Shown in pieces: positions 2,327 to 51,802 of a DNA stretch of 60,938 bases. This DNA comes from Armatimonadia bacterium. GTDB lineage: Bacteria > Armatimonadota > Zipacnadia > Zipacnadales > UBA11051. Position numbers and translations under genes: made by a program. The notes beneath the pieces were generated by a model. It was not told where the DNA came from, searched no databases, and saw only the letters and a list, made by a program, of their open reading frames with translations. The stretch's first letter is position 1. Every line of letters starts with the position of its first letter. The stretch covers positions 1-60,938 of the forward strand of contig JBDKRC010000234.1 in NCBI GenBank assembly GCA_039683575.1. The letters are read 5' to 3'.

Positions 2327-3235
2327 TTGCGTTACATTCTTTTGTGGCTAAGGGCTGTGCGAGCCCCGTTCTTCACCGGGAGCGTCGCCCCCATAATGGT
2401 TGGCACCGCCCTCGCGTACTATCATACCGGACGCGTGGACTGGCTGCTGGCAGTGCTGGCAACGGTAGCGCTGACGCTGCTTCACGCCTCGGCCAACCTG
2501 TCCAATGATTTCTTCGACCATCTCACCCGCACTGACGACCTCAATCGGAGCTTCGCCTCGCCCTTCACTGGCGGGAGCCGGGTAATCCAGGAGGGCTTGG
2601 TGCCGGCATGGCAGATGCTCGTGGCGGCGCTCCTGACGATGGGCGCAGGAGCACTGATTGGTTTCTACCTGGTTTGGGTGGCCGGTTGGCCGATCCTGTG
2701 GCTCGGCGTAATCGGCGGCGTGACCGGGTTCTTCTACACCGCGCCGCCGTTTCGCTTCGTCTATCGTGGAATTGGCGAACCCTTCATCTTCATCGACTTC
2801 GGCCTGCTGCCGGTGCTGGGGGCGTACTTCCTGCAGGCGCGGTCCTTCCCCGCTGCGGCGTTTCTCGCCGGCGTGCCGATGGGGCTGCTGATCATGGGAG
2901 TGCTGTGGATCAACCAGTTTCAGGACTCCGAGGCAGATGCCGTGGCAGGCAAACGGCACTGGGTGGTGCGGCTGGGACGGCAGCGGGCGGCAAAGGTTCA
3001 TGTCGCGGTATTGGCGCTTACCTATGTCAGCGTGTTTGTAGGCATAGCGCTTGGGATGTTCCCGCCGCATACGCTGGTGGTGCTTCTGAGCCTGCCCTTG
3101 GCCGTACAGGCTGGCAAGGTGGTGCTGGCAAGTTACGACGACTTGCCCAATCTGACCCCGGCCAACGCGGCCACCATCGGGACACATTTTGTTGTGAGTT
3201 TACTTCTGAGTCTGGGATTCGTCCTGGCGAGATAG
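2327..3235 (+). CDS. menA: 1,4-dihydroxy-2-naphthoate polyprenyltransferase (UbiA family)
   Basis: NLSNDFFD and NQFQDSEAD..GKR aspartate-rich motifs, GGSRVI, FYTAPPF...GIGE; multi-TM; TTG start. Confidence 0.85.
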   Translation: MRYILLWLRAVRAPFFTGSVAPIMVGTALAYYHTGRVDWLLAVLATVALTLLHASANLSNDFFDHLTRTDDLNRSFASPFTGGSRVIQEGLVPAWQMLVAALLTMGAGALIGFYLVWVAGWPILWLGVIGGVTGFFYTAPPFRFVYRGIGEPFIFIDFGLLPVLGAYFLQARSFPAAAFLAGVPMGLLIMGVLWINQFQDSEADAVAGKRHWVVRLGRQRAAKVHVAVLALTYVSVFVGIALGMFPPHTLVVLLSLPLAVQAGKVVLASYDDLPNLTPANAATIGTHFVVSLLLSLGFVLAR

Positions 3236-3257
3236 CCGGGCGGGAAGAGGCGACACG

Positions 3258-5336
3258 ATGAGTGCTGACGAGGCTTTGCAGCCGGTGATACAGGCAGTTC
3301 TCCCGGATCTAGTGGTTTCGGAAACGGCCAGCCACATCATCCTTGAGTTGCCCCACGAGCGGTTGTGCCTGCGAAAGGTGACGCTCGCGGACGATTGGCC
3401 GACATGGGCGGCCCCGGCCGAACCGGCCTTCTATGATCGACTCCAGACCGATCCAAAGGACCTGCTGGCCGAACTGGTGCTCCAGGCTGGCGAACCGAGC
3501 TTCGAGAGCGTCGCGGCAGCGCTTCCGCCGGTGCGCGACGTCACGCTACTGGGCGTAGAGACCGAGATACAACGCTTCGAGGTGACAGCCGAGGGACAGG
3601 CGGCGGTACTGGGCGACGGGCCGCTGCCCGAAGGCTGGCGTCTGCTGCGCGTTGGCCTTCTGGACGGCTACCTGCCGGTGTTGTGCCACCTGTACGACAC
3701 TCCGGAGGGGACGGTCGAACGCTTGACGTTCGCGAGCACGAGTAAAGACGGCCCGCTGCTGCGCCGCAGAGTTCGCGTCATCGGCGATGAACTGACCGCG
3801 GCGGCCCGATATGAGTGCGCGGCGGCGACTTCCGCGGAGGTGCCGGAGTTCTGGGACAGCCTTCTGGAGCTCGTGCAGCGCTGGCGGACCTTCTTCGATG
3901 CAGGCGTGGAACTTGAACTCCCCGAGCCTGATCTGCTTGCGGCAGCGCGAGGGATGCTGGCGCAAGGCGTCCTGAGCTTCCGCGGACTGCTGCCACGGTA
4001 CGGCATGGGCTGGTATGATCTTGAGCAGCACAACAGCTTTCCGCCCGCCCTGCTGTTCCTGGTGCAGGCGCTGCTGGCGTGGGGCCAGATAGACCGCGCC
4101 GGGGACATTCTCAGCCACTACCTCTCGCGCTATGTAAAGCCAGACGGGACAATCGACTACTATGGACCGGCCGTCGCTGAATACGGCCAACTGCTGACGC
4201 TGGTGGCCGAGTACGTTGCCCTGAGCGGCGATAGCGAATGGCTCGCGCGGCGCGTGACGCTGCTGCGCCCGCTGTGGGAGCGCCTGGTGGACCTGCGCGA
4301 GGAGTCGCTGACGGAATATCCGCAGGATGACCCGCGGCGCGGGCTAATACCGGGCCTGCCTGAGGCGGACTACCATGGGCAGGAAGAGGAGTGGAAGCGC
4401 TTCTACTACTCCGGAGACGTGTGGGCGGCCAGGGGGCTGGAGGAGATCGGCAAGGCGCTGTTGCGAGTTCCGGTGCAGGGGCTGATCGAAGAGGGGCGGG
4501 AGCTCGTGGCCGAGGCGAAACGGTATCGCCAGGCCATCGTGGCCTCGGTGCGGCAGGGAATCGGCGAAACGGGATATGTGCCAGTCGGGCCTGACCAGCT
4601 TGAGCCCATTGAGTACCTCATCGCCGACCGCCCTGCCTCGTACTGCAACTACCGCTACTTCCCCGAGATGGTATCGGCGGGAGTGCTGCCTCCGGAGCAG
4701 GTGCAGGGCATACTCGACTGGCGGCATACCCATGGGGGCGAACTGCTCGGAACGACGCGCTTCGACCATCGCCTCGATGACTGGCCGGCACTGCACCATG
4801 CGAGGGGCCTGCTGGAACAGGACGAAATAGACAATTACCTGCTACTCATGTACTCGCACTGGGCCCACCACTGCACCCAGGGCACCCTGGCCGCGTACGA
4901 GATGGTGACCCTGCGTCCCGACGAGACCGGGGCGCGGCGGCTGGCAGCCGGACAGGTGGTGCCCTGCGAGGTCATGGTGCCCACCATGCTCCGCTGGGGG
5001 CTGGTCTACGAGGAGAGGGATGCAGACGTCCTGTGGCTGTGCCGGGCGATGCCGCGACGGTGGCTTGAGCCCGGGCAGAAGGTGGTGGCGAAGGGGGTAC
5101 CAACCAGATTCGGCGAGGTCGGCTTCAACCTGAAGACTGGAGGGCAAGGGACGAAGATCGCCTTGCGGTTGCCGGGCGAGAGCGCTATCGCCGAAGTCCG
5201 GCTACGCCTGCGCGGCCCGCGCGACCGCCAACTGCGACAGGTCCTGTGTGACGGCCAGCCAGTGCCGTTCGAGGGGGACACCGTGCGGCTCGTCAACCCG
5301 CGCGGGAAGCTGAAGCTGCAGGTGGAGTGGGAGTAA
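3258..5336 (+). CDS. Putative six-hairpin (alpha/alpha)6 glycosidase-like protein
   Basis: 692 aa; helical repeats and a C-terminal P..W.....PTRFG.V beta-sandwich pattern typical of (alpha/alpha)6 glycoside hydrolases; family not assignable by eye. Confidence 0.55.
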   Translation: MSADEALQPVIQAVLPDLVVSETASHIILELPHERLCLRKVTLADDWPTWAAPAEPAFYDRLQTDPKDLLAELVLQAGEPSFESVAAALPPVRDVTLLGVETEIQRFEVTAEGQAAVLGDGPLPEGWRLLRVGLLDGYLPVLCHLYDTPEGTVERLTFASTSKDGPLLRRRVRVIGDELTAAARYECAAATSAEVPEFWDSLLELVQRWRTFFDAGVELELPEPDLLAAARGMLAQGVLSFRGLLPRYGMGWYDLEQHNSFPPALLFLVQALLAWGQIDRAGDILSHYLSRYVKPDGTIDYYGPAVAEYGQLLTLVAEYVALSGDSEWLARRVTLLRPLWERLVDLREESLTEYPQDDPRRGLIPGLPEADYHGQEEEWKRFYYSGDVWAARGLEEIGKALLRVPVQGLIEEGRELVAEAKRYRQAIVASVRQGIGETGYVPVGPDQLEPIEYLIADRPASYCNYRYFPEMVSAGVLPPEQVQGILDWRHTHGGELLGTTRFDHRLDDWPALHHARGLLEQDEIDNYLLLMYSHWAHHCTQGTLAAYEMVTLRPDETGARRLAAGQVVPCEVMVPTMLRWGLVYEERDADVLWLCRAMPRRWLEPGQKVVAKGVPTRFGEVGFNLKTGGQGTKIALRLPGESAIAEVRLRLRGPRDRQLRQVLCDGQPVPFEGDTVRLVNPRGKLKLQVEWE

Positions 5337-5354
5337 AGGTTGGCGCCGTGACGC

Positions 5355-5379
5355 GTGGGTGGGTTCGTCTCGAACCCAC
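5355..5379 (+). repeat. REP family A copy
   Basis: GTGG-GTGGGTTCG-TCT-CGAACCCAC palindrome; same family at 45506, 53082 and 54702. Confidence 0.8.
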
Positions 5380-5384
5380 ACCAT

Positions 5385-6914
5385 CTACCGCAGGAAATAC
5401 CCCTGCCGGGTAGGTGTCGCGTCGGTCGTCATGACGATTCCCAGCTTGCGGAGCCCCGTCTCATCACCCGGCCCCGGCTCGTGCGTCAGGTGCATCTGCG
5501 CGCCGCGTAACTGGCTCAACACCTCGACACCGGCTTTCGCAGCGGGGTTGTTGGCAGCGCTGATGCCAAGGGCCACCAGCAATTCCTGGACATTCAAGCT
5601 GGGCGCGCTGGAGCCCAAAACGGTGCTTTTGAACTCCGTCAGGCTCTCGACCATCGTGGCCGGAAGCAGGTGTATCTGGTCCGGAATGCCCGCGAGATGC
5701 TTGACCGCATTAATGAGGGCCGCGGAGGCCGAGTGCAGCAGCGGGGAGTTCTTGCCAGTGATCATGGTGCCGTCGGCCAGGGCGATGGCTGCGCCGCAGC
5801 AGAGGCCTTCGCTGCCGCCACCACTGGTCTCCGCACTCTTTGCGGTGTCCCGCGCCGGCTGAACCACCGGGCGGTCGGTGGGCGAAAGCGACAGCCGCAG
5901 CATGAGCTGTTCTGCCCGCTCATGGACCTCAGGCGCCACCAGCCCCCGCCGCGCTTCCCAACGATGGCGGAAGAACCGGCGGATGATCTCCTGCCGCGAA
6001 GCCTCACACACGACCTCGTCGTCCACGATCCCCGCTCCAGCCCGGTTGACGCCCATGTCCGTCGGCGACTGATACATCAGCGTCGTAGGCCGAATCTTGT
6101 TGATACGGTCCAGAATGGCCTTGAGAATGGGGAAGCTCTCGATGTCCCGGTTGTAGTTGGCGACTGTCTTCCCGTACGCCCGCAGATGGAACGGGTCGAT
6201 CAGCACGCGGTCGTTGAGGTCAACGGTAGCCGCCTCGTAGGCGACATTGACCGCGTGGTCCAGCGGGAGATCCCATATCGGGAAGGTCTCGAACTTGGCA
6301 TAGCCCGAAGGCAGGCCGCAGCGGTGGTCGTGATACAACTGTGACAGACAGATCGCCATCTTGCCGCTGCCGGGGCCGGGGCCGGTAACCACCACGAGCG
6401 GCGCATTTGTCTCAACGCAGGCGTTGCGGCCATAGCCCTCATCGGAGACGATCAGGTCCACATCATTGGGGTAGCCCGGTATCGCCGACTGCTTGTACAC
6501 CTCAATGCCCTGCTGAGTTAGCTGCCGGATGAAGCGGTTGATGTTGGCGCCCTCCTGAAAGCGCGTCAGCACCACTGCCTTGACCGGGATCTTCCATTCG
6601 CGCAGATCGTCCAGCGCGCGGAAGGTGGCGACATCGTACGTCACCCGGTAGTCGCCACGGATGCGCCCTTCCTCGACGTCTGCGGTGTGCACGGCGAAAA
6701 TGACCTCAACCTGGTCCCGCAGCCCCTGCAGCAGGCGCATCTTGACGTTCGGATCATATCCGGGCAAGACGCGGGCGGCATGCTGGTCATCGGTGAGCTT
6801 CCCCCCGAACTCCAGGTATAGCTTGCCCTCGGCTCGCTGAACTCTGTCCAGGATCGCGGCCGTCTGCTCCCGCAGGTATTTGTCATTATCGAAGCCGATG
6901 GCGAGGTTGGTCAT
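5385..6914 (-). CDS. DUF1846 / UPF0371 family protein
   Basis: IGFDNDKY, KLYLEFGGKL.DD.HAARVLPG, GPGPGSGKMA.CLSQLYH, YAKFETFPIW, SPTDMGVN. Confidence 0.9.
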   Translation of the reverse strand: MTNLAIGFDNDKYLREQTAAILDRVQRAEGKLYLEFGGKLTDDQHAARVLPGYDPNVKMRLLQGLRDQVEVIFAVHTADVEEGRIRGDYRVTYDVATFRALDDLREWKIPVKAVVLTRFQEGANINRFIRQLTQQGIEVYKQSAIPGYPNDVDLIVSDEGYGRNACVETNAPLVVVTGPGPGSGKMAICLSQLYHDHRCGLPSGYAKFETFPIWDLPLDHAVNVAYEAATVDLNDRVLIDPFHLRAYGKTVANYNRDIESFPILKAILDRINKIRPTTLMYQSPTDMGVNRAGAGIVDDEVVCEASRQEIIRRFFRHRWEARRGLVAPEVHERAEQLMLRLSLSPTDRPVVQPARDTAKSAETSGGGSEGLCCGAAIALADGTMITGKNSPLLHSASAALINAVKHLAGIPDQIHLLPATMVESLTEFKSTVLGSSAPSLNVQELLVALGISAANNPAAKAGVEVLSQLRGAQMHLTHEPGPGDETGLRKLGIVMTTDATPTRQGYFLR

Positions 6915-23646: not shown

Positions 23647-25656
23647 TTATACACTGGAACACCGTTTGGCAGAAATCGGACGACAAGCACTGACAACTAA
23701 CAGCACCAGCAGCGCCAGCGCCGACCCGAGGCTGACGGCGACGCCAGCCCGGAAACGCGGCTGGACGTAGCGAAGCTCAACGACGGATCTGCCGTCGGGG
23801 ACCGCGATGGCAGTGAAGGCGAGGTTTGAACGAACAGCCTCCGTCGGCTGCCCATCAATCGTCGCCTGCCACCACGGCAGCCACGTGTACGGCAGTATCA
23901 GATAACAGACGCGCGATGCGAGGCATTTGGCCACCACTCCCCTGGATGACACCAAGAGGACTCTGGCAGTGCCCAGTGCCGGGCTCACAGGCCCCCTGAA
24001 CTCCTCTGGTCTCGGGTTCTCCGCCAGCCACGCCGACAGAGGCTGCGTTTCGTACGTGGACACGTCCGCGCCCACCTGCCGAAGCTGCCACGCCGGGTTC
24101 ACGTCCCGTCCCGGAGGCGCCAGCAGCCACTGAATCCCGCTCGCCCCGGCGGCCGCAGGATCGAGCCAGTTCACCTGCTCCCTCAAACGCTGGAAATGCG
24201 CCAACTGCAGCGGCATGTAGCCATCAGCGGTAGAGAGACCCCACATCATGTTGAGGTTGGGGATGACAAGCTGCCTGCCGAACAGCAACGTGTCCCGCGG
24301 TGATAGGTCCGAGCGCAGCGCGTGGGCGGTGGTGCTGATGATGCGCCCGCCGGTCAGCATCTCTGCTGACGCCGGTGGCTTGAGCAAGTCCGGATCTGCC
24401 AGGGGGTTGTAGCGCATCCCAAACCACGCCGTCTCCGCCAGCAGAATGGCCGCCAGCGGCAACTGCAGCCACTTGAGCCGCCGCAGGATGGTCAGCCCAT
24501 ACGCCGCGAGCAGTGACAGGCAGGCCGAGATGATGAGCAGCCACCGTGCCGCGCAGCGCAGGCCGCTTAGCAGCGGGAGATGTACGAAGAGCCGGTAGAG
24601 CGGGTTGACGCCCGCCATGCCCATGAATAGCGATATCAGGATGAGGGCGGCCAGCAGGTTGAGAAGCGGTCGGTTGCGGCCCCGGATGAAGGCGAAGAAG
24701 GCGAGTGCCAGCGTGCTCAGACCAGCGAAGGCCTCGTATTCCCAGGCATCTCCGACGTTCAGGTGCAGGCCCAGGAAGGTCTTGAGGCTCTCCTTTGACA
24801 GCGCGTATGAGGTAACGAAGGAGAGGGAGGGCGCGCTGCGAGCCGACAGCCTGAAAAGACTCAGCATGGGCAGGAGCGTAACCCCGGCCAGCCCGGCGCC
24901 CAGCACGGCGGCGAAAACCAGAAAGAGCCAGCGACGTAGTATGAGATGGCCCGGCTCGCGGGGCTGAGAGGGGGGAACAATGACTTCGGCCAGCGCCAAC
25001 AGCGCAAAGCCCGACCCAAACGTCAGCAGCCAGATCTGGGGCTGACCGGCCAGGAGTTGAGCAGCGGAACACCACCCCAGAAGCAGGAGATACCGGGGTG
25101 CGCCTGCGCCACCATTGGGGTATCGACACGACAGCAACGCATACCAGGCCCACGGGAACCATGCCGCGGCGGTGATGATGGCGACATGGTGCAGGTGGGC
25201 GATCATGAAACCGGTGGTGGTGAAGACCGCTGCGGCGCAGAACGCGGGGAGGCGCCCTGCGCGCAGGCGCCGCGCGACTGTGAAGACCCCGGCCGCCGCG
25301 ATGACATAGTGCAGCCACAGCAGCCAGCCGATCATCTGACCAATCGGCAGCGGAATCGCCAGCAGCAGGTTGAGCGGGTACCACACGCCCGTCTGCGGCT
25401 CGGCGGCGAGGGGATAGCCGCAACTGACCAGCGGGCACCACGGCAGGCGGTTGCCACCCCACAGCTCATACCGCAGGTAGTCGTGCACCGGCAGAAACCA
25501 CGCCCACAGGTCGTCGTGGAAGTAGATGGCGCGGCCCAGCAGTACCGGGGAGTGCAAGCCGCCCAGCAGCAGCGCCAGCCCGAGCACGTACACCCAGTCA
25601 CCGCGCCGGACGGGCTCCGGGCTGCTCTCCTCGCTCTGAAGGGATAGCTCACTCAT
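23647..25656 (-). CDS. YfhO family membrane protein (GT-C-type glycosyltransferase-like)
   Basis: LPWCP...GYPLAA.PQ...YPLN, many TM helices, C-terminal PWW.A.IDG...V.LRY; start MSELS sits 10 nt downstream of a promoter motif. Confidence 0.8.
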   Translation of the reverse strand: MSELSLQSEESSPEPVRRGDWVYVLGLALLLGGLHSPVLLGRAIYFHDDLWAWFLPVHDYLRYELWGGNRLPWCPLVSCGYPLAAEPQTGVWYPLNLLLAIPLPIGQMIGWLLWLHYVIAAAGVFTVARRLRAGRLPAFCAAAVFTTTGFMIAHLHHVAIITAAAWFPWAWYALLSCRYPNGGAGAPRYLLLLGWCSAAQLLAGQPQIWLLTFGSGFALLALAEVIVPPSQPREPGHLILRRWLFLVFAAVLGAGLAGVTLLPMLSLFRLSARSAPSLSFVTSYALSKESLKTFLGLHLNVGDAWEYEAFAGLSTLALAFFAFIRGRNRPLLNLLAALILISLFMGMAGVNPLYRLFVHLPLLSGLRCAARWLLIISACLSLLAAYGLTILRRLKWLQLPLAAILLAETAWFGMRYNPLADPDLLKPPASAEMLTGGRIISTTAHALRSDLSPRDTLLFGRQLVIPNLNMMWGLSTADGYMPLQLAHFQRLREQVNWLDPAAAGASGIQWLLAPPGRDVNPAWQLRQVGADVSTYETQPLSAWLAENPRPEEFRGPVSPALGTARVLLVSSRGVVAKCLASRVCYLILPYTWLPWWQATIDGQPTEAVRSNLAFTAIAVPDGRSVVELRYVQPRFRAGVAVSLGSALALLVLLVVSACRPISAKRCSSV

Positions 25657-25728
25657 CAGGGGGAAGTTCCAGCACCTGCAGTGGCAAACCTGCCAGACGA
25701 CACAGACCGGGTGGGCATAGGACCTCTC

Positions 25729-25882
25729 GCCGCTGGTAGGAGCGCTCCCCTGAGCGCGACAGTACGCCGCTACCGGTCGCCGAGATCGCGCTCGGGGGAT
25801 GCCGCTGGTAGGAGCGCTCCCCTGAGCGCGACAGTATGCCGCTACCGGTCGCCGAGATCGCGCTCGGGGGAGCGCTCCTACC
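25729..25882. repeat. REP family D: 72-bp tandem duplication ending in an inverted REP
   Basis: GTAGGAGCGCTCCCCTGAGCGCGA in units starting at 25729 and 25801, then the inverted TCGCGCTCGGGGGAGCGCTCCTAC. Confidence 0.85.
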
Positions 25883-27278
25883 CCCGAACTGACGGCCGCC
25901 GCGCCAGCACAAACCCCACCACTGACACGATCAGCCCCGGATACATCGGCTCGAGCCCCACCGGATACGTCGGCCAGCCGTCCACCAGGTGCAGTTGCCC
26001 CCACACCAGCCATGACAGCGACGCGAGCGAGGCGGCGACCATCAGCACGGCTGCGGCCCGCCGACGGACGCGCAGCGCAGGCCAGTACGCCGATAGCAGC
26101 GGTAGGAGCAGACCGGGGATGAAGGTCGTGCCGATCGAGTACCACAGCTTGACCACCGACGGTACCCACAGCGCCAGCAGCAGCGCGATGACGGTGGTGA
26201 GGCTGAGCCCGAGGGCGGTGCGAATGCCGATGCGGGCGTCGGGATCGCCACCTTCGAGCCGCCAGACGAAGTCGCGCGTGAAGGTCACGCCGCACAGGAA
26301 CAGGTAGCTGACCAGCGTGGACATGACTGTGGCGAGCATGGCCACGTAGAAAAGGCCCTTCCAACCGGCAGGCAACAGATGTTCGGCGAGCAGCGGGTAT
26401 GCCATCACGGGGTCAATATGTGGCAGCGCCGCCCGGGCGTACAACCCCGCCGTCGTGGTCATGAAGTCGAAGATCATCCAGCACAGGATGCTGACCAATA
26501 CGCCGCGTTGAGCCGTCTGCGGGGTTTTGGCCGCGTAGCAGCGCTGGTGGAAGCCGGGGTCCACGAGCGTCCACAGCGCAATGAAGAACCAGGCGATGAC
26601 ATACTGGGCGGAGTTGCCGCCGTTCCAGGTGAGGTGGGTGGCAGGGAGCGCGGCGCGCAGGGCTTGTAGCCCGCCGATCTTGCTGAAGCAGAAAGGCAGA
26701 ATGACCGCGAAACCAACGAACATCAGGATGAACTGGACGATGTTCACGCGCACGTCGGCACGGAAGCCCCCGAAGTAGACGTAGATGGTGGAGATGATGA
26801 CCCCGAAGATCAGTCCCGGTAGCAGCGGCCAGCCGAAGATGAGCTGCAGTAGCGTGCCCAGCATGAGCACGTACGGGGCCGGGGTGGTGAGGCAGTAGAC
26901 AAAGCCCGCGGCGATGACGCTCGCGGTTTTGCCATAGGCTTCGTCAATTTTGTCGGGGATGGTGTACAGCTTCGCCTGGCGTATCTTCGGCGCCAGGAAA
27001 AACGCGAAGAAGGCGGCGAAGAAGTAGTAGGGCACGCCGAAGACCAGCCAGGCCGAGAGCCCGTTCTGGTGGGCAAACTCCCCTACGCCCAGAATACCGC
27101 CATACCACGTCGCGACCAGAGTCGCCACGAAGGCCGGCAGCGTGAGCGTGCGCCCGGCCAGAAAGTAGTCGTCGGAGGTCTTCCCGCGCCGCATGCAGCA
27201 CAGACCGACGATCAGCAGCGCCAGGAAATAGCCGCCGATGACGAGGTAATCAGGTGTGGCGAAAGTCATCCGCGGCAT
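25878..27278 (-). CDS. Sodium:solute symporter (SSS) family transporter, probable thiamine/precursor uptake
   Basis: DYFLAGR, ATWYGG, YTIPD, QRCYAAK, ATVMST; roughly 13 TM segments; last gene of the TPP-riboswitch operon. Confidence 0.9.
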   Translation of the reverse strand: MPRMTFATPDYLVIGGYFLALLIVGLCCMRRGKTSDDYFLAGRTLTLPAFVATLVATWYGGILGVGEFAHQNGLSAWLVFGVPYYFFAAFFAFFLAPKIRQAKLYTIPDKIDEAYGKTASVIAAGFVYCLTTPAPYVLMLGTLLQLIFGWPLLPGLIFGVIISTIYVYFGGFRADVRVNIVQFILMFVGFAVILPFCFSKIGGLQALRAALPATHLTWNGGNSAQYVIAWFFIALWTLVDPGFHQRCYAAKTPQTAQRGVLVSILCWMIFDFMTTTAGLYARAALPHIDPVMAYPLLAEHLLPAGWKGLFYVAMLATVMSTLVSYLFLCGVTFTRDFVWRLEGGDPDARIGIRTALGLSLTTVIALLLALWVPSVVKLWYSIGTTFIPGLLLPLLSAYWPALRVRRRAAAVLMVAASLASLSWLVWGQLHLVDGWPTYPVGLEPMYPGLIVSVVGFVLARRPSVRG

Positions 27279-27280
27279 GA

Positions 27281-27895
27281 TCAGGCGACTCCGGTAGCGG
27301 TAATGACGGCGAGCAGGCCGGAGTGCAGGTCAATGAAGACTTCCTCCGCAGTCGCTTCGTTGCTAAGACCCCGCGTCCCCTGTTCGAGGGCGCCGTGCAG
27401 CGGCCACCGGAGGCCTTCGGTGTCAAGTGTGACATCGCAGGTCAGTGGCACCAGCGAGACGAGGCTGCCGGGCTTACATGAGAGCGTGTAGGGCTCGGAG
27501 ATGACCCGCATTTGGCTGAAGTCGTCAACCAGCAGCAGGTCGGCCCGCCGGTGATAGCGCGCGATCAGCCACATGTTGCCCAGCGTGTGGTCGAGCCGCC
27601 GTCCCGTGGCCCCGAGCACCACGATTCGCTCGGCGCCACGCTCCAGCGCCAGCAGGACGGCCTTCTCGGCGTCGCTGTTCTCCTGCTCCCCATGGGGGCC
27701 GGAGTTGATGACCTCACACTCCGGCAGCATCCCAGCCGAATCCATGTCCCCGATGACAATGTCCGGGCAGCAGCCGGTCGCGCCGACCCACCCCACCGCC
27801 CCGTCTGTGCAGACGATCAGGCTCGTCTGCTGCAGGTGATGAAGCAGCAACTCTCTCGAGGGTGGCTCGCCGTCACAGAGGATCAGTGCCATCAT
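27281..27895 (-). CDS. thiN: Thiamine diphosphokinase
   Basis: TDGA, PD..IGDMDS, SD.EKA, GATG.R.DH..GN, GL.WPL, GLSNE; ATGA overlap with the upstream pilin-like gene. Confidence 0.92.
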
Positions 27896-28623
27896 GGCGT
27901 CTCGTTTCCCGGATCGGTAGTCAGGCCTCCAAGCGTAAGGACGTCGGACGAGGTCGCGCGGAGCTTGTACCACTTCGCATGACCGTCGGCAAACATGAAG
28001 TTGTCGCCGCCGTTATGACGCCCCCGCAGCAACTCTCCATCGAAGCTGGTGGCCCAGTCGGGGCTGTCGAGGGTGTTGTAGCGCGCCGGCCAGCCGCTGG
28101 CAGTCCAGTCCGAGCTGTCATCCCACAAAATCACACACTGAGCCGGAGCAGCAACACCGCCAATGGACAGGGTCAACGGATAGACGGTCGCAGGGGTCCG
28201 GTTCCAGGGGTCCCAGCCGGAGGTCAGTTCGAAGCCAAAGTTGGCGTTCCAGGCATAGCTGAGCAGGATCGTATGACAGCCGGCAAAGTCCACGTTCGGG
28301 GCGCGGCCATCCGAAGGGCAGCGAAATATCTGGTTGTTCTTGACGTATGGCAGGATGCGGTTGGGCCAGGTGTACGGGATCTGAGTGGCGTCTCCAATGC
28401 CACCAGCGTTATCGTTCTGGTAGGAAATCGGATATAGTTCGTCATAGTCCTGCGCATACATCAACACGCTGGTACCAAGCTGCTTGAGGTTGTTCAGACA
28501 ACTCGCCTGCCGGGCCTTCTCACGGGCCTTGGCGAACACCGGAAAGAGAATGGCGGCCAGGATCGCAATAATGGCGATCACGACCAGCAGCTCAATCAGT
28601 GTGAAACCTCGGGTACTCCTCAT
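27892..28623 (-). CDS. Prepilin-type N-methylation / DUF1559 / H-X9-DG protein
   Basis: [58 protein letters not shown]. Confidence 0.92.
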
Positions 28624-28651
28624 CTCATTCACCCGTTCGGGCGTGGGACCG

Positions 28652-28682
28652 AAAAAAGCGCAACAGATATAATCCGTTGCGC
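28652..28682 (-). terminator. Intrinsic terminator (riboswitch expression platform)
   Basis: Minus strand GCGCAACGGAT-TAT-ATCTGTTGCGC-TTTTTT between the aptamer and the first gene. Confidence 0.85.
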
Positions 28683-28700
28683 CGCGGTGATAGAACTCAT

Positions 28701-28807
28701 CGCTTCCCTACGCCGGTATTATCCGTTTCAGGTATGAGCAGTGCGAACTGCTCGAGGGTTGGGCACCTTTGCCCTCTCAGCCGCCTTACCTGGCAGCACC
28801 CCTAGCG
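28701..28807 (-). ncRNA. TPP (THI-box) riboswitch
   Basis: Minus strand CGCTAGGGGTGC...CTGAGA...ACCC...ACCTGAAACGGATAATACCGGCGTAGGGAAGCG carries the hallmark THI-box blocks; it lies upstream of thiN. Confidence 0.93.
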
Positions 28808-28826
28808 GGTATTCGATTGTGTTCAT

Positions 28827-28855
28827 AGAATAGCCCATTCGACGGGGCAGGTCAA
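28827..28855 (-). promoter_or_regulatory. Sigma-70 promoter of the TPP operon
   Basis: TTGACC-N17-TATTCT, about 20 nt upstream of the aptamer. Confidence 0.7.
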
Positions 28856-28969
28856 GGTGTACGTGAGGACGAAGACGCGCTCCAAGGGCGACGCCCTGAG
28901 CACCCGCGGGGCTTCGCGAAGCTCGCCGGGAGTATTTGGCCGAAAGCCTTACAGGGCAGGGAGTACATT

Positions 28970-30031
28970 GTGACCTCACGTGAGCGCCTCAGATTGACAC
29001 TGCACCGCCACGAGCCTGATCGCGTAGCCATGGCCGAGATCGCCTTCTGGCCCGAAACTGTCACGCGTTGGCAGCAGGAGGGACTGCCGGCCGATCAGAC
29101 GCCGGCGGACTACTTCGGCCTCGACCAACTGGCCCTCGGCGGCTGCGACTGCTCGCTGCAGTTGCCGGTTGAACTGCTTGAGGAGACGGCGGAGTGGAAG
29201 CTGGAGCGCGACGCGGACGGGACCGTGCACAAGGTCTGGAAGGAGCACTACGCCCCGCCGTCGGAGATTGACCACCTGATCAAAACGCGCGCGGACTGGG
29301 AACGCTACCGCGAGCGCCTCACGCCATCTGACGACCGCCTCGCGAAAACGCTGGTGAGCTACTACCAGAATGCGGAGGAGAACGGGCAGTTCTCGACCTT
29401 CAACCCGACCGAACCCGTGTGGTGGACGCTAAGGACGCTGGGGATGGAGCGCGCGCTGATGACGCTTGCCGAGGACCCAAAGTGGTTTGAGGAAATGGTG
29501 GCGACGCAGGCGGAGATGTCGCTGGAACTGATCCGCAAGCTGCTCACGAGGGGAGCGAAGCCGGATGCGGTCTGGTTCTTCTCGGACCTGTGCTACCGCA
29601 ACGGCATGCTCTTTTCGCCGCGCGCCTACCGGCAGATCATGATGCCGTACCACAAGCGCTACGCGGAGCTATGCCACGAAAACGACATGTTCCTGATTCT
29701 TCACTGCGATGGGGATGTGGGGGAATTCATACCACTGCTGATCGAGTCGGGGTTCGACTGCGTTCAGCCGCTAGAAGCGCGGGCGGGGAACGACGTGCGC
29801 GACCTCAAGCCCCTCTACGGCCAGCAGATCAGCTTCTTTGGCAACATCAACATGGATGTGCTGGCCACCGGCGACCGCGAGGCTATCAAGCATGAGGTGG
29901 TAACCAAGGTGCAGGCGGCCAAGGTAGGCGGCGGGTACATCTACCACTCCGACCACTCCGTCCCCCCAACCGTCAGCTTCGAAGCCTACAGCTACGCGAT
30001 AGAACTGGCGCGGCAGGTTGGGAAGTACTGA
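28970..30031 (+). CDS. Uroporphyrinogen decarboxylase / MtaA-CmuA family protein
   Basis: MTSRER....PDRV, HCDG, QPLE..AG.D, GGGYI..SDHSVP; GTG start with GGAG RBS. Confidence 0.88.
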   Translation: MTSRERLRLTLHRHEPDRVAMAEIAFWPETVTRWQQEGLPADQTPADYFGLDQLALGGCDCSLQLPVELLEETAEWKLERDADGTVHKVWKEHYAPPSEIDHLIKTRADWERYRERLTPSDDRLAKTLVSYYQNAEENGQFSTFNPTEPVWWTLRTLGMERALMTLAEDPKWFEEMVATQAEMSLELIRKLLTRGAKPDAVWFFSDLCYRNGMLFSPRAYRQIMMPYHKRYAELCHENDMFLILHCDGDVGEFIPLLIESGFDCVQPLEARAGNDVRDLKPLYGQQISFFGNINMDVLATGDREAIKHEVVTKVQAAKVGGGYIYHSDHSVPPTVSFEAYSYAIELARQVGKY

Positions 30032-33529: not shown

Positions 33530-34210
33530 ATGCGAAAAGGTTTTACGCTCATTGAGTTGCTGGTGGTCATTGCCATCATCGCGATCCTGGCCGCGATCCT
33601 GTTCCCCGTCTTCGCTAAGGCGCGGGAAAAGGCCCGCCAAACCTCCTGTCTATCCAACCTCAAACAGATTGGCGTGGGCCTGCAGATGTACTCGTCCGAC
33701 TATGATGAGCAACTGGTCCGGTATTCGGGCAGTGATTATCTGTGGGTTGAGAAGATCATGCCTTACGTCAAGAACCAGCAAATGTTCAAGTGCCCCTCCA
33801 GCAACTCCGGCTGGGGTGTCTCCAACACCGCCCGCTGTTCCACTGTCCATCCGCCGGAATCCGGCTGGAGCGCCCGTGGTGGCTACGTTACCTATGGCAT
33901 GTGCACCATTACCGAGAGTGCCACCTACCGTGACTTCAATGACGATGGTGATGTAACAGACAACCTCGGATACGGCATGGGCTGGGCCGAGGCTCAGGTC
34001 CAGCTTCCCGCGGAGAAGATTGCTGTGGCCGAGTCCTCCTGTCCGCGCTTCCGCGGCCGTGACCACTACGATCTCTATCGCGCCGGCAATGCATCGTTCG
34101 CTGTTCACAACGGCGGCATGAACTGCGCTTTCGTGGACGGCCACGCTAAGTGGACCAAGGATGCCAAGAAGGGCAACTTCGACATCGCCTCCGCCACGAT
34201 ATACAACTAG
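33530..34210 (+). CDS. Prepilin-type N-methylation / DUF1559 / H-X9-DG protein
   Basis: [15 protein letters not shown]...[32 protein letters not shown]. Confidence 0.92.
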
Positions 34211-51121: not shown

Positions 51122-51802
51122 GTGCGCAGAGGATTTACACTTATCGAGCTGTTGGTCGTCATCGCCATCATTGCCATTCTGGCGGCCATCTTGTTCCCGG
51201 TATTCGCCAAGGCCCGCGAGAAGGCCCGTCAGTCGAGTTGTCTGAGCAATGTGAAGCAGTTGGCGATAGCTTTCCTGCAGTACGCGCAGGACTATGACGA
51301 AATGACGCCGATGAACACCTACGGCACCGTTCAAAGCCGTTGGCACTACACCATGCAGCCATATCTGAAGAATACCCAGGTAATGATCTGTCCGAGTTCC
51401 AATACCGAGTTCGGGTATGCCCAGGGCTACTACTGGGGCTACTTCCACCTGTTCACCCGCGGTGTGACAAACCTCTATGGCGGCAGTGTGCCGCTGGGGG
51501 CGATTCCCTACCCGGCGGAGACGCACTGCTTCATTGAATCACATGGGCTCGGCAGTGACGCCACGGGCCAGTCCCTGCTTATGTCGCTCAACGCTTTTGG
51601 AAGTTGCTCGCGGCTATCAGCCAACATGTGGAACTATGCCGTCTGGGCTCCTGACCGGCACAACGACGGCATGAACATCGCCCTGTGTGACGGTCATGCC
51701 AAGTGGTACAGCAAGAGCTATTGCGAGGCGGAGTGGGCGAAGACCACGACCGGAGCACCGGCCGGTACCGCCTCCGGCGGTCGCCTCTTCGGCGGCTGGT
51801 AG
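51122..51802 (+). CDS. Prepilin-type N-methylation / DUF1559 / H-X9-DG protein
   Basis: GTG start after [22 protein letters not shown]...; [16 protein letters not shown]. Confidence 0.92.

Follow-up and report, generated by a model that had tools for sequence, protein, structure and literature searches.

The window analysed in this study is a stretch of 60,938 nucleotides from an Armatimonadia bacterium (GenBank assembly GCA_039683575.1, contig JBDKRC010000234.1). The host is a soil-type bacterium of the phylum Armatimonadota, class Armatimonadia, and the genome to which the window belongs is referred to as G000. On the minus strand of the window, a promoter-like site, a thiamine pyrophosphate (TPP) riboswitch aptamer, a terminator, a type IV pilin-like gene, a thiamine pyrophosphokinase gene and a sodium:solute symporter (SSS) gene followed one another in this order. 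Wherever an aptamer was detected at the related transporter loci of the phylum, it preceded a pilin-like gene. It is strongly supported that the pilin belongs to the thiamine regulon. With a probability of roughly 0.55, the pilin-like protein may be a dedicated, thiamine-repressed envelope component that serves as the capture protein or receptor of vitamin B1 acquisition.

The riboswitch and the pilin-like gene in the window and in the phylum

The operon consisted of the following features.

28827 to 28855, minus strand: sigma-70-like promoter, TTGACC-17 nt-TATTCT, a consensus match only (9 of 12 positions)
28688 to 28813, minus strand: TPP riboswitch aptamer (THI element), matched by the full RF00059 model, with an extra 6-bp hairpin at 28736-28753
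28651 to 28683, minus strand: intrinsic terminator (putative expression platform), a 12-bp stem with a T-run, from stem and fold analysis
27892 to 28623, minus strand: prepilin-type DUF1559/H-X9-DG pilin-like gene, 243 amino acids from the ATG at 28623, from profiles and orthologues
27281 to 27895, minus strand: thiamine pyrophosphokinase gene (thiN/TPK), TIGR01378 at 121 bits (cut-off 76.4), with both the catalytic and the B1-binding domain (PF04263 and PF04265)
25878 to 27278, minus strand: SSS family transporter gene, probable thiamine importer, PF00474 at 105.5 bits

An earlier reading made from the sequence only had named these elements, and all of them were present on the minus strand. 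The promoter is regarded as a mere consensus match, because the 3.4-kb region held two such sites against 0.7 expected from shuffles. The open reading frame (ORF) of the pilin-like gene is open from a GTG at 28632 (27892-28632), and the ATG at 28623 is the likelier start. The kinase start was placed at the ATG at 27895, since relatives align with the long ORF only from its residue 23-30 onwards; read from the ORF coordinates, this ATG overlaps the pilin stop codon as ATGA. The SSS gene started 2 nt past the kinase stop codon. Its product was an SSS family member by PF00474, encoded by the third gene of a riboswitch operon, and was also panF-like at 67.6 bits, which is under the cut-off.

The aptamer was searched for with RF00059, as the sequence-only reading had proposed. 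A permissive scan gave a match to model positions 1-105 with 47.9 bits and an E value of 3.4e-8. The default Rfam scan of the window gave no match, the score being under the RF00059 gathering score of 54.3. The orthologous aptamers of relatives scored 59-79 bits with RF00059. In an alignment with 16 Rfam-verified relatives, P3 and the ACCUGA core of the window copy were separated by an additional hairpin of 6 perfect base pairs, GAGCAG-uucgca-CUGCUC. This 18-nt insert was unique to the window copy among the 17 aligned aptamers and accounts for the low Rfam score. The conserved core (CUGAGA, ACCUGA, CGUAGGGAA) and the P1-P5 architecture were present, with the invariant columns common to the 16 verified relatives, and a lineage covariance model (R1) scored the window aptamer at 83.6 bits. 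Judged by its conserved sequence, the element is taken to be a true TPP aptamer that carries an insertion specific to its lineage, and it is predicted to bind TPP and to switch expression.

The terminator stem (28683..28657) had 12 bp with 6 G-C pairs and was followed by TTTTTC; the leader fold had a z of −3.8. By a crude criterion, 31 of the 56 related loci had a comparable hairpin with a T-run in the interval from the aptamer to the pilin start. Lineages may therefore differ in how the switch operates.

The occurrence of the operon was investigated in related genomes. An SSS orthologue was found in 7 of 60 near relatives. The gene order pilin, kinase, SSS was conserved in all five near relatives whose contig reached far enough, and the TPP aptamer was found in four of these five; in the fifth, the contig ended too close. 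The elements are not a chance assembly, because the same order recurs in relatives. Among 401 sampled Armatimonadota genomes, 117 had an SSS orthologue. The upstream regions of every match, including one extra relative, made up 118 loci, of which 19 were unassessable owing to a contig end and 99 were assessable. ORFs at the 118 loci were classified by profiles built from these loci. To locate aptamers, 20 representative loci were searched with Rfam, and all loci with R1, a model derived from 17 verified aptamers. A regular expression for the THI-box missed several aptamers and gave false positions, and was replaced by Rfam and R1. The gene orders at the 99 assessable loci were as follows.

riboswitch, pilin, kinase, SSS: 50 loci
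riboswitch, two tandem pilins, kinase, SSS: 2 loci
riboswitch, pilin, SSS: 3 loci
riboswitch, pilin, pilin, SSS: 1 locus
distant pilin-like gene, no riboswitch: 1 locus
kinase, SSS: 31 loci
SSS alone: 11 loci

Each of the 56 detected aptamers, which came from 11 families, was followed by a pilin-like gene at a distance of 31-183 nt (median 101). None of the 56 directly preceded a kinase or SSS gene, and no aptamer was detected in the 42 pilin-less loci. At the Rfam gathering threshold, 12 of 13 pilin-bearing loci had an aptamer, against none of 7 pilin-less ones, and the thirteenth pilin-bearing locus scored just under the threshold. Several of the operon-bearing genomes were single-contig assemblies. 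The linkage of the pilin to kinase and SSS was thus not universal, while its pairing with the riboswitch was constant. The claim of the sequence-only reading that the riboswitch governs the pilin-like gene agreed with these positions. Its expectation of a conserved order of riboswitch, pilin, kinase and SSS held for the riboswitch-bearing operons and did not extend to the 42 loci with neither riboswitch nor pilin. Two tandem thiamine-linked pilins stood behind one riboswitch at loci L091 (genome G262) and L078 (G085), the latter without a kinase before the SSS.

Five genomes with a pilin-less kinase-SSS pair were further investigated. In all five, the single detected TPP riboswitch preceded, elsewhere in the genome, an orthologue of one of the two thiamine-linked pilin clades (clade B, below). 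These unlinked pilins scored 296-401 bits against the clade B profile, compared with at most 170 bits for the G000 paralogues. Of 10 unlinked units, 7 had a convergent gene next to the pilin, which leaves the pilin as the sole gene that the riboswitch controls there. In one genus, the unlinked unit held a second pilin-like gene followed by unrelated genes. The sequence-only reading had raised a chance insertion for the case that orthologous thiN-SSS operons lacked the pilin. This explanation failed for the riboswitch-bearing operons, and the five genomes with a pilin-less kinase-SSS pair kept the riboswitch-pilin unit elsewhere.

The TPP riboswitches were also surveyed independently of the transporter. 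RF00059 gave 131 matches in 107 of 151 genomes, and the first downstream gene was classified for 50 of them, the top 30 and the bottom 20 by score. The 50 riboswitches preceded a thiamine-linked pilin in 17 cases and canonical thiamine genes in 32, and one was cut off by a contig end. The counts were as follows.

thiamine-linked pilin orthologue: top 30, 16; bottom 20, 1
Thi4: top 30, 7; bottom 20, 8
ThiG: top 30, 3; bottom 20, 0
ThiC: top 30, 2; bottom 20, 4
ThiE: top 30, 1; bottom 20, 3
ThiD, ThiM, ThiL-like and CytX-type permease: top 30, 0; bottom 20, 1 each
cut off by contig end: top 30, 1; bottom 20, 0

One of the three bottom-20 ThiE loci (L315) was assigned from an ORF layout identical to that of a scanned locus of the same genus. 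At L317, the ThiL-like gene was the second ORF behind an unscanned first ORF of 103 amino acids. Many of the other 81 matches coincided by coordinates with the riboswitch-pilin loci counted above (two by arithmetic, the rest by eye). Among the 50 riboswitches classified, the pilin was the sole non-canonical member of the TPP regulon and its commonest single target. At loci L299 and L304 (G138 and G224; family f33), the TPP riboswitch was followed by Thi4 and then by a DUF1559 pilin-like second gene. This gene reached no more than 75-78 bits with the clade B profile, and the locus ends within it.

The pilin-like protein and its paralogues

The DUF1559/H-X9-DG prepilin-type families are very large, and the pilin-like protein is one of many such proteins in its genome. 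A profile search found 181 pilin-like ORFs in G000, roughly estimated at 3% of its genes, and a separate search gave at least 160 matches to the window pilin. Two further paralogues were located in the window at 33533-34159 and 51125-51715, both on the plus strand, with 47-48% identity to the thiamine-linked pilin. The window pilin had 64-66% identity to its orthologues in five relatives, against at most 53% to the best paralogue in its own genome.

A tree of 91 rows was calculated from 32 operon pilins, 30 paralogues of G000 and 29 paralogues of four distant genomes. To limit its size, the tree included no more than four operon pilins from each family. The operon pilins formed clade A (families f1, f5, f8 and f26; support 100), which includes the window pilin, and clade B (families f18, f24, f25, f34, f35, f37 and f45; support 99). 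The stems of both clades were long (0.52 and 0.64) and their internal branches short, amid long-branched paralogues. Constraining all 32 operon pilins into one clade improved the log-likelihood by 79, with a p value of 0.95 in the approximately unbiased test. A single origin of the thiamine-linked pilins was not rejected by this sequence comparison and is favoured.

The number of paralogues in G000, with two further copies in the window itself, could suggest that one of about 180 mobile, fast-duplicating pilin-like genes had landed between riboswitch and thiN and has no role in thiamine metabolism. This explanation is strongly disfavoured, and we give it hardly any credence. A gene without a thiamine role would not be expected before every one of 56 aptamers across 11 families, nor beside the riboswitch in all five genomes where it is unlinked from kinase and SSS. 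The orthologue clades were kept with short branches, and in the nearest relatives the pilin (64-66% identity) was at least as conserved as the kinase (44-65%).

The protein had the signatures of the prepilin-type DUF1559 family. PF07963 (N_methyl) matched with 37.1 bits and TIGR02532 with 33.5 bits. PF07596 (DUF1559) matched with 58.9 bits against a cut-off of 23.3, covering only profile positions 2-65 of 268. TIGR04294 (H-X9-DG) matched with 22.2 bits against a cut-off of 19, the motif being residues 206-217 in the 246-residue numbering. The N-terminus had every feature of a class III signal peptide: a short basic leader, a G|F cleavage site, Glu at +5 and a hydrophobic N-terminal helix. A family scaffold was near-invariant across 180 paralogues, comprising the N-terminal helix, two Cys, QDYDE-x-P and H206...D216-G217-H218. 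The H-X9-DG motif is a feature of the family and not of thiamine, because it was conserved in 98-100% of these paralogues.

The three-dimensional structures of the window pilin and of a clade B orthologue were predicted. The clade B orthologue, modelled with 40 sequences, reached a predicted local distance difference test (pLDDT) of 90.8 and a predicted template modelling score of 0.81. The window pilin, modelled with 33 orthologues, showed the same layout with low-confidence loops in the head. Foldseek gave nothing at an E value of 0.001 or better for either model. A Foldseek-independent aligner matched the clade B model to PilA4 of Thermus (Z 5.1, root-mean-square deviation 3.7, 122 aligned residues), to an enterotoxigenic Escherichia coli type IVb pilin (Z 4.7), to EpsG (Z 4.6) and to PulG (Z 3.9). 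Its top structural matches were almost exclusively type IV pilins and pseudopilins. The two-lobed fold of solute-binding proteins was not among the 50 aligner matches or the Foldseek matches listed; a missing match leaves this fold possible. According to the models, the protein is predicted to have a true pilin fold with an elaborated head that resembles nothing solved at this sensitivity.

These data also bear on the proposal that the protein is an envelope enzyme or chaperone which renders thiamine phosphates or degraded vitamers transportable, with the His and Asp of H-X9-DG acting in catalysis or metal binding. His206, Asp216 and His218 were invariant, and co-regulation with salvage genes would suit such an activity. 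The motif was, however, as common among the 180 paralogues as stated above and was also present in the cobalamin-linked paralogues scanned, so that it looks like family scaffold. No enzyme fold was matched except weakly, by inositol monophosphatase-like chains with Z of 2.1-2.8. An enzyme or chaperone is therefore considered very unlikely.

Vitamin acquisition and the cell envelope

The thiamine pathway of G000 was examined. ThiC was not found, and tblastn of G000 with the ThiG, ThiC, ThiD, ThiM and CytX of relatives gave nothing at an E value below 1e-5; Thi4 of relatives gave only a short match to the flavin adenine dinucleotide motif. Only ThiE-like and ThiL-like genes of the pathway were found. 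The organism thus seems to be auxotrophic for thiamine, with this operon as its visible route to TPP, and the operon may therefore be essential to its host. Since no kinase for hydroxymethylpyrimidine (HMP) was found, thiamine rather than HMP is the likely substrate of the SSS. On contig C119 (2645-5854), a tandem of three pilin-like paralogues (2645-4905, plus strand) was convergent with the sole ThiE-like gene (5270-5854, minus strand), possibly a coincidence given 181 copies.

The envelope inventory of G000 was unusual for a diderm-type genome, with seven secretin matches and no match to the Plug domain of TonB-dependent receptors. The four comparison genomes had 0, 1, 4 and 7 Plug matches. 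Two matches to prepilin peptidase (Peptidase_A24) were found in G000. Three of the seven secretin genes lay on one contig (C231, 6135-10032).

A second vitamin was linked to the same protein family. RF00174 gave nine cobalamin riboswitch matches in five genomes. A pilin-like gene was the first gene after the riboswitch in four of the nine loci and lay about 950 nt downstream in a fifth, so that the pairing occurred in all five genomes (G000, G081, G230 and G199, and at a distance in G202). On contig C10 of G000 (L255/L263), the cobalamin riboswitch at 28008-28135 (RF00174, 82.6 bits) lay about 150 nt upstream of a DUF1559 pilin-like paralogue at 28283-28966. The operon of G230 comprised the riboswitch, a DUF1559 pilin, a BtuF-like Peripla_BP_2 protein, CobU, CobS, CobT and a second BtuF-like Peripla_BP_2 protein. 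In three other cases, the cobalamin-linked pilin appeared to stand alone. In E. coli, BtuB is a TonB-dependent B12 receptor behind a cobalamin riboswitch. Because canonical periplasmic binding proteins are already encoded in the G230 operon, its pilin more likely acts before the periplasmic step, at a position like that of BtuB by analogy. The sequence-only reading had assigned the pilin-like protein to the slot of a solute-binding protein. The G230 operon weakened this assignment, and the slot of an outer-envelope receptor fits better.

The same operon bears on another explanation, in which the pilin-like protein is a periplasmic binding protein anchored in the inner membrane that forms no filament and passes thiamine directly to the SSS, as in tripartite ATP-independent periplasmic (TRAP) transporters. 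In lineage f26 the pilin immediately preceded the SSS with no kinase between them, as would suit such a protein. The Pfam name of PF07596 is 'SBP_bac_10', and excerpts of one report describe archaeal sugar-binding proteins with class III signal peptides (PMC3047682). On the other side, the pilin stood alone and far from transporters in the 7 unlinked units with a convergent neighbour, two canonical binding proteins were already present behind the G230 pilin, and the fold of solute-binding proteins was absent from the structural matches listed. SSS transporters are not known to use binding proteins. A complex prediction of the SSS with the pilin head (residues 30-243) scored 0.00 with the predictor verdict "no answer", which is neutral as evidence. 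Taken together, an anchored binding protein appears unlikely.

A starvation-induced pilus subunit was also considered, which would serve adhesion or foraging, e.g., attachment to vitamin-producing neighbours, and would leave the vitamin itself unbound. The pilin fold, the class III signal peptide and the abundant secretins are consistent with a pilus, and two vitamins controlling different paralogues could indicate a general 'hunger' appendage. Separate and tightly conserved paralogue clades for B1 and B12 are more easily explained by ligand specificity, and the ATGA overlap couples the pilin tightly to the kinase in translation, so this function is judged highly improbable.

The reading as an envelope receptor leads to the following model, in which we infer that TPP represses the operon, that the pilin takes part in uptake, binds a ligand and is assembled into filaments, and where the protein is located. 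At high TPP, the aptamer would bind TPP and the adjacent terminator would halt transcription. At low TPP, read-through would allow the pilin-like protein, the SSS and the kinase to be made. The pilin-like protein would be processed by prepilin peptidase and displayed in the periplasm or outer envelope by a type IV pilus or type II secretion-like machine together with secretins. Its specialised head would capture thiamine ahead of the inner-membrane transporter, the SSS would carry thiamine over the inner membrane, and the kinase would trap it as TPP. The pilin would do the job of OMthi (Bacteroides) or of BtuB (B12), in place of an outer-membrane vitamin receptor.

Several observations weigh against this model. 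Thiamine is small enough for general porins. The operon held no pilus-assembly genes, and 42 of the 99 assessable SSS loci had neither an adjacent pilin nor a riboswitch. The operon-bearing genomes G230 and G081 had 7 and 4 Plug matches, respectively, and both had ThiC; the ThiE match of G230 was above the cut-off, while that of G081 was split and below it. The pilin is therefore not simply a substitute for missing TonB-dependent receptors or missing biosynthesis. The G000 assembly (6.23 Mb, 352 contigs, 96% complete) makes absences provisional, and the one TPP riboswitch detected in G000 came from 150 of 366 first-look candidates scored, a limited coverage.

Further points of this kind concern the protein. 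The model of the window pilin itself was only of moderate quality (pLDDT 66.6), the Z scores to pilins were modest, and no solved binding domain was found for the head among the structural matches of the whole-protein models. A free quick tree search kept clades A and B apart, with a weak backbone. A profile of clade B only ranked the window pilin 4th of 182, so that the orthologue was not singled out across clades. Clade-specific conserved columns numbered 48 in A and 25 in B, and about four positions were common to both (Y71, D108, P112 and G236 in the 246-residue numbering). Because the heads otherwise differ, one shared thiamine pocket is not obviously predicted.

By analogy with competence pili, which take up DNA through a secretin as they retract, a wider proposal can be made. 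Armatimonadota, and perhaps other phyla rich in DUF1559/H-X9-DG proteins, may use a large repertoire of ligand-specific pseudopilins as outer-envelope receptors for scarce nutrients. Type IV filament machinery would display or retract these pseudopilins through secretins, either alongside TonB-dependent receptors or in their stead, and the B1-linked and B12-linked clades would be the first of the repertoire to which ligands can be assigned. This proposal is tentative, and we hold it to be possible rather than probable. The sequence-only reading had likewise suggested that the paralogues form a nutrient-receptor repertoire. The cobalamin riboswitches before pilin-like paralogues provided a second case, and the receptor role itself stays conjectural.

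The surroundings of the operon were also inspected. A 72-nt unit occurred in two exact tandem copies (98% match) at 25729-25871, directly after the stop codon of the SSS gene and within an over-extended ORF of 905 amino acids (23647-26364, minus strand). The divergent neighbour (28970-30031, plus strand) was a URO-D/MtaA-like methyltransferase-family protein (PF01208, 69 bits; all NCBIfam matches under the cut-off). Wastewater metatranscriptomes of one study contained small shares of the words of the region, with short exact contigs within the kinase and SSS genes. No contig spanned a gene junction with at least 31 letters on each side, which is uninformative on co-transcription or thiamine response. 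A depth peak at the 5' end of the pilin gene was formed by loose-ended partial matches, i.e., by the conserved N-terminus of other paralogues or organisms.

Comparison with known systems

Riboswitch control ties one slow-evolving subfamily of DUF1559 to thiamine and others to cobalamin, which provides the first testable ligands of the family. The same logic of comparative genomics first identified other thiamine transporters. The riboswitch control also suggests that bacteria can use a type IV filament system to take up small-molecule nutrients. If this is true, porins and TonB-dependent receptors would be joined by a third means of crossing the outer envelope, which would help to explain vitamin scavenging by organisms with few or no TonB-dependent receptors. 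Among the titles and abstract beginnings searched, no paper linked a TPP riboswitch to a pilin, and none assigned a function to DUF1559/H-X9-DG prepilin-type proteins; supplementary regulon tables could already list the genes. Judged by titles, the DUF1559 literature found concerns planctomycetes. The window protein bears all three signatures of the DUF1559/H-X9-DG prepilin-type proteins, and the thiamine-linked clades differ from the family at large as slow-evolving subfamilies tied to a riboswitch.

The closest likeness in operon content is to the OMthi-pnuT-tnr3 system. In Bacteroides thetaiotaomicron and other gut Bacteroidetes, according to the parts of the report consulted, OMthi, pnuT and tnr3 usually share a single operon controlled by a TPP riboswitch and are sometimes split; the riboswitch is mostly retained in the split operons and is sometimes duplicated (PMC5613172). 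To that extent, both systems combine a TPP riboswitch, an envelope component, an inner-membrane transporter and a kinase, in an operon that is sometimes split. When the Armatimonadota operon is split, the riboswitch stays with the pilin. The first component is a type IV pilin-like protein of 230-280 amino acids instead of a TonB-dependent beta-barrel, and the inner-membrane transporter is an SSS instead of PnuT. The window pilin, with 243 amino acids and a predicted pilin fold, does not have the Plug domain and 22-strand barrel of OMthi/BtuB-type receptors, so the likeness is one of function and not of membership.

The transporter resembles ThiV of SAR11, which excerpts of one report describe as a TPP-riboswitch-regulated SSS for HMP or thiamine and the sole route for the thiamin requirement (PMC11452348). 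Both are SSS-family transporters in a TPP riboswitch regulon, the window transporter by its family membership and its position in the operon. The Armatimonadota SSS stands third behind pilin and kinase, which points to thiamine rather than HMP, and the SAR11 excerpts mention no accessory protein.

The Sulfolobus bindosome offers a likeness in mechanism. In the excerpts available, its sugar-binding proteins carry class III signal peptides and are assembled by the type IV pilus-like BasEF (PMC3047682). As far as these excerpts go, both systems would take up nutrients through proteins with pilin-type signal peptides placed by a type IV filament-like machine, which is proposed here from the genes. 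The bindosome proteins are described there as canonical ATP-binding cassette (ABC) binding proteins that carry a pilin-type leader, and their archaeal host has no outer membrane. In Armatimonadota, the whole protein is predicted to be pilin-fold, the bacterium has secretins, and the partner is a secondary transporter.

The monocistronic riboswitch-pilin units resemble BtuB, as a stand-alone gene directly behind a vitamin riboswitch. The protein architecture and the energy coupling are entirely different from those of BtuB.

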